Positions 514 to 36,599 of a stretch of 64,000 nucleotides of DNA are shown here, piece by piece. Source of the DNA: Escherichia coli (GTDB taxonomy: Bacteria; Pseudomonadota; Gammaproteobacteria; Enterobacterales; Enterobacteriaceae); assembly GCF_050920415.1 (NCBI RefSeq), contig NZ_CP169309.1, one strand, 5' to 3'. Under the pieces are notes generated by a model. The model did no database searches and was not told where the DNA came from. It saw only the letters and a list, made by a program, of their open reading frames with translations. A program made the translations under genes and the position numbers. The stretch's first letter is position 1; each line of letters starts with the position of its first letter.

Positions 514-1578
514 TTAACTGTATGCATGTAGCGTACGTTGGCAAAGTGCCGAACGTACGCAATCCTCTTTACCGAATCGGATGATCCCGACCATTTCATC
601 TTCTTCGAAACGTTCCAGCGCGTCACTTAATCCGGAGCGCACGCCGCGAGGCAAATCGCATTGCGTGATATCACCGTTGACGATAACCGTCACGTTCTCC
701 CCGAGGCGGGTTAAAAACATTTTCATTTGCGCGGCAGTCACATTCTGCGCCTCGTCAAGAATGACGACTGCATTTTCAAAGGTACGTCCACGCATATAGG
801 CGAACGGCGCAATTTCCACCTTCCCTATTTCCGGTCGCAGGCAGTACTGCATAAAGGAAGCCCCTAAGCGACGGACCAGCACGTCGTAGACCGGGCGAAA
901 ATAGGGAGCAAACTTTTCTGCGATATCACCAGGTAAGAAACCAAGATCTTCATCGGCTTGCAGAACTGGACGGGTGACGATAATCCTGTCGACATCCTTA
1001 TGTATCAGGGCCTCTGCCGCTTTTGCGGCACTGATCCAGGTTTTTCCGCACCCGGCTTCGCCGGTGGCGAATATCAGCTGCTTACTCTCAATAGCCTTCA
1101 GATAGTGCAATTGCGCTTCATTTCGCGCGAGGATGGGCGAGGTATCGCGACTGTCGCGGGCCATACCAATGGCTTCTACGCCGCTCATCTGCACAAGCGA
1201 GGTGACCGATTCTTCTTCACGCTGCTTATGGCTGCGCGAATCCCGTCTCAGCACACGTTTTGCCTCGCGACGAGCTTTGATCACTGCTTTTTGTCTTCCC
1301 ATGGAGAGCACCTTGAGTTGTTTGTATTCATCACACGCGCCGTTGGCAGCGCGATTATGCGCACGAACATCAGAGGGTTGGCTTCCTTGTAAGCCATAGT
1401 TTGCTTTTGGATAAAATGCCGAAAAACGGCTACGCGCACCGTTTACGGCGTCGGTAACACATGAAAAGAAAGGATGAGGTTGAAAATGCAAAGTGACGAG
1501 ATGACTACCGGAGGAGAAATCTCCGCGAGTGGTGGAGCGTTGCTTAACAAAACATTGTCCAGTACAGGACGTTACCAT
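514..1578 (-). CDS. phoH: PhoH, phosphate-starvation-inducible ATPase
   Basis: 354-aa ORF with Walker A motif GEAGCGKT; matches recalled PhoH. Confidence 0.93.
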   Translation of the reverse strand: MVTSCTGQCFVKQRSTTRGDFSSGSHLVTLHFQPHPFFSCVTDAVNGARSRFSAFYPKANYGLQGSQPSDVRAHNRAANGACDEYKQLKVLSMGRQKAVIKARREAKRVLRRDSRSHKQREEESVTSLVQMSGVEAIGMARDSRDTSPILARNEAQLHYLKAIESKQLIFATGEAGCGKTWISAAKAAEALIHKDVDRIIVTRPVLQADEDLGFLPGDIAEKFAPYFRPVYDVLVRRLGASFMQYCLRPEIGKVEIAPFAYMRGRTFENAVVILDEAQNVTAAQMKMFLTRLGENVTVIVNGDITQCDLPRGVRSGLSDALERFEEDEMVGIIRFGKEDCVRSALCQRTLHAYS

Positions 1579-1726
1579 CCGCGATCTCCATAGTGACTGA
1601 CTATCACTGCCGGGAACTTCCGCTGCTACTTAATAATTACAACAGATCTCGCATTCATTGCAACAATATATTCACTTATATTTAACTATAAAACACCATT
1701 TCAGTGACATTAGTTTCTACTGGAAA

Positions 1727-1745
1727 GATGACAGAGTGATGACAG
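1727..1745 (-). promoter_or_regulatory. Pho box (PhoB binding site) upstream of phoH
   Basis: minus-strand CTGTCATCACTCTGTCATC: two CTGTCAT direct repeats spaced as in the Pho box consensus. Confidence 0.6.
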
Positions 1746-1780
1746 TGATGAAAAAAGCTGTGTGCTTTCAGCAGGATTCG

Positions 1781-2043
1781 CGTCAGGCATCAACGCACGA
1801 ATGCCGGATGCGGCGTGACCGCCTTATTCAGCCTACCGAACCCGCACCGATTGTAGGCATGATAAGACGCGCAAGCGTCGCATCAGGCATCAACGCACGA
1901 ACGCCGGATGCGGCGTGAACGCCTTATCCTGCCTACCGAACCCGCACCGATTGTAGGCATGATAAGACGCGCAAACGTCGCATCAGGCATCAGCGCACGA
2001 ACGCACGAACGCCTGGTGCGGCGTAAATGCCTTATCCGCCTCT
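1781..2043. repeat. BIME/REP tandem array, about 2.6 copies of a 100-bp unit
   Basis: unit beginning catcaggcatcaacgcacgaa... recurs at 1781, 1881 and 1981; each contains REP-like palindromes (gccggatgcggcgtgaacgcc, gtaggcatgataagacgcgc). Confidence 0.8.
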
Positions 2044-2048
2044 AAAAA

Positions 2049-3320
2049 TTAAACTCGCAATAATGCGCTTCCAAGATAATCGCTCGCGTCCTTCACCCCC
2101 GGCAGCGCAAAAAAATAACCGCCGCCGATGGGTTTAACGTATTCCTCCAGCGCTTCACCATTGAGCCTTTTTTGTACTGTCAGGAAGCCCTTTTCCAGAT
2201 CGTGTTGGTAGCAGACAAACAGCAACCCCATATCCAGTTGCCCGGAGTTGGTAACACCCAACGAATAACTGTAGCCACGACGCAGCATCAGACTAGACTC
2301 GCTCTCCGTCGTGCGGGGATTCGCCAGCCGGATATGGCTGTCCAGCGCGATCACCTTCCCTTCCGGATCACTGGCGTAATCGGGAACATCATGCTCATGC
2401 TGCATTCCCAGCGGCGCACCGGTTTGCTTATCGCGACCAAAAATTGTCTGCTGTTCTTTCAGCGGCGTTCTGTCCCAAAATTCCACTCGAAACTGAATCA
2501 AACGCACCGCCTGGTAGCTGCCGCCGATAGCCCACGCAGGCTCCAGCTGATCTGCCGTCACCCACACTACTTTTTGCATCACTTTCGCATTTTGGCTGTC
2601 AGGATTAGCAGTGCCGTCTTTGAAGCCCAACAAATTAATCGGCGTCTCTTTGCCTTTACTGCGCGCCGCGTGATCGGAAATAAACCCTTCCCGCTTCCAG
2701 CGCACGCTGAGCAAATCCGGCGTGTGTTTGATGATATCGCGCAGCGCATGGATCACCGTGTCCTGGGTGTTGGCGCAAATCTGTAGCAACACATCACCAT
2801 GACATAACGCCGCATCAAGCGAGTCGTTAGGGAAACGTGTCATCTTCTGCAACTTTTTCGGCATCTGCTGCGCAAGGCCAAAACGCTCATCAAACAATGA
2901 GTAGCCCACCGATAACGTGATGGTGAGATTATCGGGCGCAATGTAGCCGCCAAGAATGCCGGAATCGCGTGGCGGCAGGCGTGGATTTGGCGTTTCTGGT
3001 GCTGCTCCGCCCTGAGTCAGAAAAGCAAAACGCTGAGTCAACAAGCGAAACAATCGCTCAAGATCAGCTTTATCGCTGGCAAGCACATCAAACGCCACCA
3101 GCATCATTGCCGCCTGCTGCGGCGTCAGAATACCCGCCTGATGTTCGCCATAAAACGGCTGCGCTTCACTGCGCGCATCCGGTGAAAGCGTCCCCGGCGC
3201 ACTTTGCGTTTTTTGAGCATGCGCTACCGGACAACTTCCTGCCAGTGCCAGCGCGCCAATCCCTTTCAGTAAACGTCGGCGTGACGGTTCATTCACGCCG
3301 TTTTCATCTTCATACTGCAT
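2049..3320 (-). CDS. efeB: EfeB, Tat-secreted heme (DyP-type) peroxidase of the EfeUOB iron uptake system
   Basis: 423-aa ORF; twin-arginine signal ([16 protein letters not shown]); matches recalled EfeB/YcdB. Confidence 0.93.
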
Positions 3321-4510: not shown

Positions 4511-5341
4511 TTACGCGGAGCGAGACGCTGTCGCCCCTGCGCGCGGCGGCAGAGCAAATGCCACCAGCGCCGGGATGAGATAAATAAACCAGACGGCGAC
4601 TTCGCTGACGCTCGGCGCTTCCTGATAACCAAAGATACCTTCCATCAGCGTACCGAACAGCGAGTGAGTTGAGAGCACCGCGCTCATATCGAAGGCGATT
4701 TCCTGAAAGTGGTTCCACAGCCCGGCTTCATGAAACGCGCGAATAGCACCAGCAGCCAGCCCTGCGGCGACGAAGAGAATAAACAGGCTGGTCCATTTAA
4801 AAAACGCGCCAAGATTGAGGCGAATACCGCCCCAGTAGAGCAGGAAGCCGAGCACCACGGCTGTAGCAAGACCGAGCATTGCACCCAGCGGAGGCCAGAT
4901 ACCGACATCTTGTTGAAACGCCGCCAGCAGGAAAAAGACCGACTCCAGTCCTTCCCTTGCAACGGCAAAAAAGACCATCATCACCAGCGCCCAGCCATGA
5001 TGATTCCCACGCTGCAATGCGCTATCGACTGCCTGTTCCAGTTGCACTTTGACGTTGCGCGACACTTTACGCATCCAGAAAACCATCCAGGTGAGGATCA
5101 CCACGGCAATCACCGCCACGATACCTTCGAACAATTCCTGCTCTTTTTGCGGAAATTCGCCGGTAGTTTCATTAATGAATATACCCAGCCCCAGGCACAA
5201 CGCAGCGGCTAGCAACACGCCAATCCACATGACACCAATCCATCGACCTCGCTGGGTACGCTTAAGATAGCTGGCAATCAGGCTGACAATCAGCGCGGCT
5301 TCAAGTCCTTCGCGCAACATAATGAGAAACGGAACAAACAT
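4511..5341 (-). CDS. efeU: EfeU, ferrous iron permease (FTR1 family), apparently intact
   Basis: continuous 276-codon frame from MFVPFLIMLREGLEAAL; REGLE motifs present; no frameshift visible (K-12 carries a frameshifted copy). Confidence 0.88.
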   Translation of the reverse strand: MFVPFLIMLREGLEAALIVSLIASYLKRTQRGRWIGVMWIGVLLAAALCLGLGIFINETTGEFPQKEQELFEGIVAVIAVVILTWMVFWMRKVSRNVKVQLEQAVDSALQRGNHHGWALVMMVFFAVAREGLESVFFLLAAFQQDVGIWPPLGAMLGLATAVVLGFLLYWGGIRLNLGAFFKWTSLFILFVAAGLAAGAIRAFHEAGLWNHFQEIAFDMSAVLSTHSLFGTLMEGIFGYQEAPSVSEVAVWFIYLIPALVAFALPPRAGATASRSA

Positions 5342-5394
5342 GCCACCCACCCTTAAACGTTTTTCTGAGTCAATCTATGCAAAGAAAAGTAAAT

Positions 5395-17922: not shown

Positions 17923-18020
17923 GCCGGATGCGGCGTGAACGCCTTATCCGGCCTACAAAACAGTGCAAATTCAATATATTGCAATCTTCTGGTAGGCCTG
18001 ATAAGCATCGCGCATCAGGC
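17923..18020. repeat. REP/BIME elements downstream of rutG
   Basis: gccggatgcggcgtgaacgccttatccggcctac and inverted gtaggcctgataagcatcgcgcatcaggc palindromes. Confidence 0.8.
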
Positions 18021-25225: not shown

Positions 25226-25230
25226 GTTTG

Positions 25231-25370
25231 TTGCCTGATGCGACGCTTAACGCGTCTTATCAGGCCTACAAAGCGCACTGTCCCCGTAGGCCGGATAAGG
25301 TTCATGCCGCATCCGGCGGATCTGCCTTAATGTCTAATGCGACGCTCAACGCGTCTTATCTGGCCTACAA
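25231..25370. repeat. REP/BIME elements between cbpM and torD
   Basis: gcctgatgcgacgcttaacgcgtcttatcaggcctac, ccggataag...gccgcatccggc and a second gcgacgctcaacgcgtcttatctggcctac palindrome. Confidence 0.8.
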
Positions 25371-35928: not shown

Positions 35929-36101
35929 GGTCAGTGCGTATTTGCAGCGCGACGTTATCAAAGGTGATCATCGTCGATTTACAAAAAATACACTTTGCCC
36001 CTAAAGGATTTCGCTCCGTCACATCGAATGCCGATGTGCGGTACTGTGAACCATGACAACATGGACAGCGGAAATGGAGATGTTGAGTAATAACGGCAAC
36101 C

Positions 36102-36314
36102 TTAGAGCGTAACAACGTTCGCTGCCGCGGGACCACGTTGCCCCTGCTCAATAGAAAATTCAACTTTCTGATTTTCGTTCAGCGTGCGGAATTCATTGCT
36201 CTGGATGGCGGTGAAATGGACGAAAACGTCTTTGCTGCCATCATCAGGAGTGATAAAGCCAAAACCTTTATCTGCGTTAAACCATTTTACTAAACCAGTC
36301 ATTTTATTAGACAT
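36102..36314 (-). CDS. cspG: CspG, cold shock protein
   Basis: 70-aa [24 protein letters not shown]... with CSD RNP motifs. Confidence 0.95.
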
Positions 36315-36599
36315 ATTTTACTTCCTTCATTTTGGGCCTTTCGGCAAACAGGGCTTTAATACAGAAACTACTTAGTGTTCAGGAGAGAGACTCAAAAGAA
36401 GGGGATAATGCCTGATAATGAGAACTGCTTTAGTAAACTACTTTGTATGCTGTCTGTCTTTCAAACCGACGCAGCTATTAACGCATGATAATTGAGATTA
36501 AGCAATTTTTATTTTAGCCGTCCGGCGGTCTTAAATATCGCTGGCTTTATTTTATTAACCCCGTATAGTGCAGCGCAGTATTTTCAGTAAGGAATTTGT

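Follow-up and report, generated by a model that had tools for sequence, protein, structure and literature searches.

A tandem BIME-2 array of strain-variable unit number between efeB and phoH in Escherichia coli

The efeB-phoH gap and the layout of its repeats

The DNA analyzed here ("the window") is a stretch of 64,000 nucleotides from E. coli, matched at 100% by the genome of E. coli MFDS1022581 (NZ_CP169399.1). Near one end of the window, a repeat array lies wholly within the 470-bp gap that runs from the efeB stop codon (2049-2051) to the start of phoH. The array, efeB, and phoH are co-oriented on the minus strand, with the array 3′ of efeB and upstream of phoH. A sequence-only reading of the window had placed a repeat between these two genes, and their coordinates agree with that location. 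The features that frame the array are:

514 to 1578, minus strand: phoH (open reading frame [ORF] list; annotation of K-12 and of the genome identical to the window)
1658 to 1918, plus strand: 86-aa ORF with a TTG start, which begins antisense in the phoH promoter region and ends inside the second Y REP
1728 to 1745, minus strand: Pho box of the phoH promoter, CTGTCAT CACT CTGTCAT (the single match in 64 kb, with 0 expected by chance)
2049 to 3320, minus strand: efeB, the last gene of efeUOB (ORF list; RefSeq annotation of the genome identical to the window and of K-12)

The Pho box is perfect, lies 32 bp from the array edge, and sits in a flank that is conserved in all alleles described below. 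The fixed limit of the array on the downstream side is marked by this box.

Since the efeU frame is open in the window (279 aa; 4511-5350, minus strand), the efeUOB operon, for which the array is the 3′ untranslated region (UTR), is probably functional in the window strain. The efeU gene of K-12 is a frameshifted pseudogene. The phoH product is 262 aa according to PGAP in the genome identical to the window versus 354 aa in the K-12 record; the longer form is possible, supported by the window ORF at 514-1578 on the minus strand. Antisense to phoH, within its 3′ end, Rfam family Ysr251, a Yersinia antisense small RNA, gave a strong match (519-712, plus strand; 194 bits, gathering score 100).

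Tandem Repeats Finder (TRF) reported one array at 1778-2004, with a period of 100, 2.3 copies, 94% matches, 0 indels, and a score of 405, in agreement with the 100-bp tandem repeat claimed earlier. A gapless repeat search detected 92% identity between the 100-nt copies at 1771-1870 and 1871-1970, together with a three-copy family at 1778, 1878, and 1978 (spacing 100 + 100). The starts proposed before, 1781, 1881, and 1981, are in register with this family and at most 3 nt off. A further family from the same search, which contains the Y palindrome, starts at 1787, 1887, and 1995, with spacings of 100 and then 108. The last Y REP is displaced to this final spacing because an 8-bp tandem duplication, CGCACGAA at 1994-2012 (TRF period 8, 2.4 copies), lies inside the third copy. 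Once the 8-bp insertion and the degenerate third Y REP are counted, the array ends at about 2042 and holds about 2.55 units. Thus, the earlier figure of about 2.6 copies stands for the array as a whole, but owing to the 8-bp duplication, exact 100-bp periodicity is confined to the first 2.3 copies.

REPs were located by approximate matching to Y, Z1, and Z2 consensus sequences consistent in form with those of Ton-Hoang et al. 2012 (PMC3333891). From the phoH side to the efeB side, the parts of the array are:

1778 to 1788, plus strand: Z2 REP remnant at the phoH-side edge, the 11-nt tail end TCGCGTCAGGC, in register with the 3′ ends of both complete Z2 REPs (allele alignment)
1789 to 1802: tail-to-tail linker, copy 1, ATCAACGCACGAAT, 14 nt, between the Z2 remnant and Y
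1803 to 1836, minus strand: Y REP, copy 1, GTAG-first on the minus strand; 3 edits; hairpin of -13.2 kcal/mol on the efeB-sense strand
1837 to 1852: head-to-head linker, copy 1, short S type, CGAACCCGCACCGATT, 16 nt, flanked by the CTAC of Y and the GTAG of Z2
1853 to 1888, plus strand: Z2 REP, copy 1; 1 edit; hairpin of -14.8 kcal/mol; partly inside the naRNA4 match at 1856-1933
1889 to 1902: tail-to-tail linker, copy 2, ATCAACGCACGAAC, which aligns to the linker of the naRNA4 model
1903 to 1936, minus strand: Y REP, copy 2; 1 edit; hairpin of -14.9 kcal/mol
1937 to 1952: head-to-head linker, copy 2, 16 nt, identical to copy 1
1953 to 1988, plus strand: Z2 REP, copy 2; 2 edits; hairpin of -12.6 kcal/mol
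1989 to 2010: tail-to-tail linker, copy 3, 22 nt owing to the 8-bp duplication (TRF; alleles with inserts of 162, 170, and 178 bp)
2011 to 2042, minus strand: Y′, a degenerate terminal Y REP that has lost its GTAG; 6 edits; fold of -9.4 kcal/mol without the canonical REP stem

The order is Z2 remnant, Y, Z2, Y, Z2, Y′, that is, two full units flanked by a Z2 remnant (toward phoH) and a degenerate Y (toward efeB). The unit sums to 100 bp from a Y REP of 34, a head-to-head linker of 16, a Z2 REP of 36, and a tail-to-tail linker of 14, the last with the 14-nt consensus ATCAACGCACGAA(T/C). In the consensus scan, the REP strands alternate in the order -, +, -, +, -. The GTAG foot is kept in the four intact REPs and lost in Y′, which lies 6 nt from the efeB stop codon. 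With four well-formed REPs no more than 3 edits from the Y or Z2 consensus, a degenerate fifth, and orientation alternating in the 100-bp unit, the earlier description of the repeat as a REP-containing BIME proved correct. On the efeB-sense strand, the four intact REPs form canonical mismatched hairpins of -12.6 to -14.9 kcal/mol, and Y′ does not. The 301-nt UTR folds at -136 kcal/mol (z = -3.8 versus shuffles), partly through long-range pairing between Y and Z2.

Outside the gap, three regions of the window are worth recording. A second REP cluster, Z2-Y-Z2, occupies 25229-25368, with copies that are more degenerate (6 edits each). At 36048-36470 on the minus strand lies a cspA-type thermoregulator 5′ UTR (Rfam RF01766, 157 bits), presumably that of a cold-shock gene paralogue. 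Between 55292 and 56936, a plus-strand tRNA-Ser(tga) is close to a tightly spaced tRNA-Gly(tcc)/tRNA-Arg(tct) pair of the minus strand, and a match to the small RNA STnc100 lies between them. This arrangement may mark the insertion of an island or prophage at a tRNA gene.

Type and alleles of the array

BIME-2 elements consist of z2 and y REPs with a short S linker and s, l, or r flanks, and occur as multiple tandem copies whose number varies between strains; BIME-1 elements combine z1 and y with a long L linker, often with an IHF site, and occur as single copies (PMC3333891). The array in the gap has REPs of the Y and Z2 types, successive REPs in inverted orientation, a short linker, tandem copies of variable number, and a GTAG foot in its four intact REPs. 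We therefore regard it as an ordinary BIME-2 of alternating Y and Z2 REPs, with a probability of about 90%. We also considered CRISPR as a candidate and rejected it, because the palindromes are separated by the same sequences in every unit.

The sequence-only reading had further suggested that such an array can bind IHF or gyrase. REP clusters as a group have been listed among the sites that IHF binds (PMC3333891), and an element of the BIME-1 class (RIP/RIB) that acts through IHF binding would account for such a property. We consider this explanation highly improbable. The two REPs other than Y are of the Z2 type (36 nt, 1-2 edits), the head-to-head linker measures only 16 nt, the consensus scan gave no match to a Z1 REP in 1770-2050, and there is no match to the IHF consensus WATCAANNNNTTR in 1700-2060. 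As it is the L linker of BIME-1 that binds IHF (PMC3333891), the IHF part of the suggestion was dropped for an array with no Z1 REP, no long linker, and no WATCAANNNNTTR. The gyrase part was kept, since gyrase is the documented partner of the BIME-2 class.

Elsewhere in the window, a likely BIME-1 is found at 17923-18020, where a Y REP (17923-17956, minus strand) and a Z1 REP (17992-18020, plus strand) are separated by a 35-nt linker. Rfam family ES036 (CssrF) matches at 17957-17999, in the linker of this pair (38.5 versus a gathering score of 37.6). The exact IHF consensus was not found at 17923-18020.

To describe variation at the locus, we compared complete E. coli genomes using an 801-nt query across the array, which matched 5,425 of 5,426. 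Identity reached 99% or more in one genome only. Among 59 locus matches taken at even intervals along the ranking, 54 spanned 673-681 bp instead of 801, one spanned 575 bp, and three spanned 653-662 bp. At the top of the ranking, at least 12 of the 5,426 genomes (H61, H64, H65, and H67-H75) had spans equal to that of the window or 8 bp shorter. At least 12 of 5,426 genomes thus carry two units, and the exact allele of the window is present in one. A query built only from the two unique flanks gave an independent, likewise evenly spaced sample, in which 49 of the 51 genomes with both flanks had one unit, one had no unit, and one, the top-ranked, had two. Overall, one unit is present in about 95% of sampled genomes.

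About 790 of 5,417 genomes matched only the phoH-side 200 nt of the flank-only query (megablast; the efeB flank was 2049-2248). The 3′ end of efeB therefore appears to be much more polymorphic than the phoH promoter side, and the BIME is placed at the boundary between the two.

We fetched 15 alleles and measured the insert as the length between conserved anchors, GCTGTGTGCTTTCAGCAGGATT and the efeB stop codon. The insert classes were:

44 bp: no complete REP (Z1323HEC0399)
143-145 bp: one unit and a Y′ shortened by an 18-bp deletion (K-12, O157:H7, Escherichia sp. E1V33)
150 bp: one unit and an intact Y′, with a different phoH-side junction (UTI89 and two other strains)
162 bp: one unit and an intact Y′, 8-bp motif once (RMDEC465, AR_0077)
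170 bp: one unit and an intact Y′, 8-bp motif twice (EC42405)
178 bp: one unit and an intact Y′, 8-bp motif three times (2017-02-2CC)
262 bp: two units and Y′ (2013C-4282, Z0117EC0005)
270 bp: two units and Y′ with the 8-bp duplication (window)

Several inserts differ by exactly one 100-bp unit (44/144, 162/262, and 170/270). The earlier expectation that copy number varies between strains was thus confirmed by genome comparison at the locus, with 0, 1, or 2 units in exact 100-bp steps. The window strain carries an unusually long allele, the longest among the matches listed from 5,426 complete genomes.

Comparison of units suggested how the long allele arose. The two units of the window, A and B, differ from one another at 5-6 of 100 positions. 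Unit B is the same as the single unit of RMDEC465 (0 differences in 100), while the Y REP of unit A is the same as that of AR_0077. The long allele therefore looks like the product of unequal exchange between different one-unit alleles rather than of a fresh duplication, and these identities indicate a probable mosaic origin. In the divergent strain E69, we found an independent two-unit array, with units identical at 99 of 100 positions; none of the 5,426 genomes carries this allele. In Escherichia sp. E1V33, the structure is that of K-12, except that the head-to-head linker is of the kind found in REP325. Together, the E69 array and the E1V33 linker argue that gain and loss of units and sequence turnover have been recurrent at this site.

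From the allele series, whole 100-bp units would be gained or lost by unequal recombination or slippage between units, possibly aided by a REP-associated transposase, and alleles would also be shuffled through recombination between strains. In E. coli E50 (L014), the same site holds a single Y REP and, after it, an unrelated hairpin, ATGCCCGAT...ATCGGGCAT. The anchors were not found in ETEC4067 (L013). In a cross-species scan, an exact 24-mer from the Pho box had matches in only two species representatives, so that the history of the array in the genus is only partly resolved.

The allele series also bears on the 86-aa ORF. One could suppose that this ORF is a real small gene and the repeat a repetitive coding region, as the frame is open in the window and the 86-aa version also occurs in four other alleles. 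However, the ORF begins with TTG, has no Pfam family, and is unannotated in the RefSeq genome identical to the window. Across the 15 alleles, its length is 43, 44, 46, 59, 65, 86, 97, 101, or 115 aa and the C-termini are unrelated; the alleles differ by 100, 18, and 8 bp, which are not multiples of three; and its N-terminal half runs antisense across the phoH promoter and Pho box. The chance that it is a gene is vanishingly small. As the sequence-only reading had held, the ORF is spurious, an artefact of an open frame through the repeats. REP arrays yield unstable ORFs of this kind, which is a reason for gene callers to mask them.

Possible roles in efeUOB and phoH expression

In any efeUOB transcript that passes the efeB stop codon, the array is the 3′ UTR of efeB, with Y read GTAG-first as in the transcript of REP325 and naRNA4. 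The earlier claim that such arrays affect upstream mRNA is refined by this geometry: the upstream mRNA is the minus-strand efeUOB transcript, and the gene downstream is phoH. No intrinsic terminator (a G+C-rich stem followed by a T run) was found at 1579-2048 on either strand, and there was no promoter-like site on the minus strand inside or just upstream of the array. phoH has its own Pho-box promoter.

The Rfam family naRNA4 (RF02564) represents the 77-nt Y-linker-Z2 unit of REP325 (PMC4550694). On the minus strand of the array, 1856-1933 matched this family with 72 bits, where the gathering score is 59.5; this was the sole match above threshold in the 64-kb window. The same interval scored only 41 bits on the plus strand, and two neighboring units scored 40.2 and 28.7 bits, below threshold. 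Judged from sequence, the strand bias of these scores shows the array to be in the same transcript sense as REP325.

These matches raise the question of whether the array encodes a nucleoid-associated RNA of the naRNA4 type, which would bind HU, bridge cruciform DNA, and condense the chromosome. The best match exceeds the gathering score on the transcribed strand, other units match more weakly, and the original report assigned this nucleoid role to REP325 RNA (PMC4550694). However, the Rfam model describes one Y-linker-Z2 pair, and a BIME-2 unit so arranged should match it regardless of function; the match therefore marks a BIME-2 unit and not necessarily a small RNA gene. Moreover, the minus strand shows no promoter-like site within the array or immediately before it. 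A 2026 preprint, whose authors include the senior author of the original report, describes REP325 and naRNA4 as without measurable nucleoid compaction, and finds no REP-REP contacts in Hi-C (bioRxiv 10.64898/2026.03.23.713779). We therefore view a nucleoid RNA as very unlikely. A separate Rfam match, to MIR918, was rejected as a chance match to a long imperfect hairpin (32.5 bits versus a gathering score of 268).

A role in the efeUOB transcript is easier to reconcile with the geometry of the locus. According to the same preprint, REP325 is a partly Rho-dependent attenuator that lowers transcription into the downstream gene by about 8- to 10-fold and stabilizes the upstream transcript; the effects of REPs are strongly context-dependent, and mRNA half-life is not generally extended by terminal REPs (bioRxiv 10.64898/2026.03.23.713779). 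As the efeB-phoH geometry is the same as that of REP325 and there is no other terminator, the most likely role of the array would be the same, namely, to protect efeUOB mRNA and to limit read-through into phoH. By analogy, the four stable REP hairpins in the RNA would block 3′-to-5′ exonucleases and so shield efeUOB mRNA. The same hairpins would lower read-through into phoH, as REP325 does for yjdM/yjdN, which would keep the iron- and acid-regulated efeUOB operon apart from the phosphate-regulated phoH gene. A translation-coupled effect of the stop-proximal REP is doubtful, because this REP is the degenerate Y′, which forms a poor hairpin.

At the DNA level, gyrase would bind and cleave preferentially at the Y REPs. 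BIME-2 elements are enriched in gyrase cleavage sites, most of them in Y REPs, though only a subset of elements carries such sites, and the supplements of the gyrase Topo-Seq map contain no mention of efeB, phoH, or ycdB (PMC6379681). We put the odds that either functional effect, in RNA or in DNA, would be measurable at this locus at about even. A literature search for efeB, phoH, and REP together found nothing relevant. The K-12 record NC_000913.3 shows no REP feature between the two genes, but the copy used has none at REP325 either, so this is uninformative.

A less probable but serious alternative is that the array has no selected function and is a neutral, self-propagating remnant of REP/RAYT activity in an intergenic gap that tolerates it. 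Natural isolates include alleles with 0, 1, and 2 units, most strains have a terminal Y that is in decay or has been deleted, and both the different content of the site in E50 and the different type of head-to-head linker in E1V33 fit this explanation. On the other hand, a BIME-2 is present at the site in every lineage examined, including a divergent Escherichia species, except for the rare 0-unit allele and E50, with its single Y REP. The four intact REPs also keep near-consensus sequences and stable hairpins, and the same architecture has measurable effects at yjdM-yjdN (bioRxiv 10.64898/2026.03.23.713779).

If the array acts in this way, the number of units (0, 1, or 2) and the presence of the stop-proximal Y could form a heritable, strain-specific dial that sets the level of efeUOB mRNA and the iron- or acid-induced leak into phoH. 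This idea, drawn from analogy, is speculative and on balance improbable. Were it true, the rare long allele of the window strain would be a regulatory variant and not a neutral length polymorphism. More practically, the locus offers a clean natural allele series, with 0, 1, or 2 units and with or without the terminal REP, between co-oriented genes of different regulons. This series could be used to test the recent terminator-stabilizer model of REP function beyond REP325.

Comparison with known REP systems

BIME-2 arrays, 100-bp units, and variation in copy number between strains have been known since the 1990s, and the element between efeB and phoH is of this known kind. As a discovery it matters little; the value of the locus is practical.

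The array resembles BIME-1 (RIP, for REP-IHF-REP) in that a Y REP is paired with an inverted second REP. However, BIME-1 uses Z1, a long linker with an IHF site, and a single copy, none of which apply to the array. With the BIME-2 family in the nomenclature of Gilson, Bachellier, and Hofnung (PMC3333891), it has in common the alternation of Y and Z2, the short head-to-head linker, and tandem units that vary between strains. Nothing essential differs, and the Y on the efeB side of the window array is degenerate.

The closest comparison is REP325, the model BIME-2 element, which lies between yjdM and yjdN in K-12 and is the source of naRNA1-6. Its period is also exactly 100 bp, with 5.8 copies and 96% matches versus about 2.5 units in the window array. 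The linkers differ in sequence: REP325 has AGTCGGCACCGTT and GGAGGGTGCGGGAATTT, whereas the window array has ATCAACGCACGAAC and CGAACCCGCACCGATT. At 14 nt, the tail-to-tail linker ATCAACGCACGAAC falls in the length class of the REP325 l linker, one of the published s, l, and r types, but has another sequence. Despite these differences, REP325 has the same order of Y and Z2 and the same orientation relative to the transcript, and like the array described here, it is located between two co-oriented genes.
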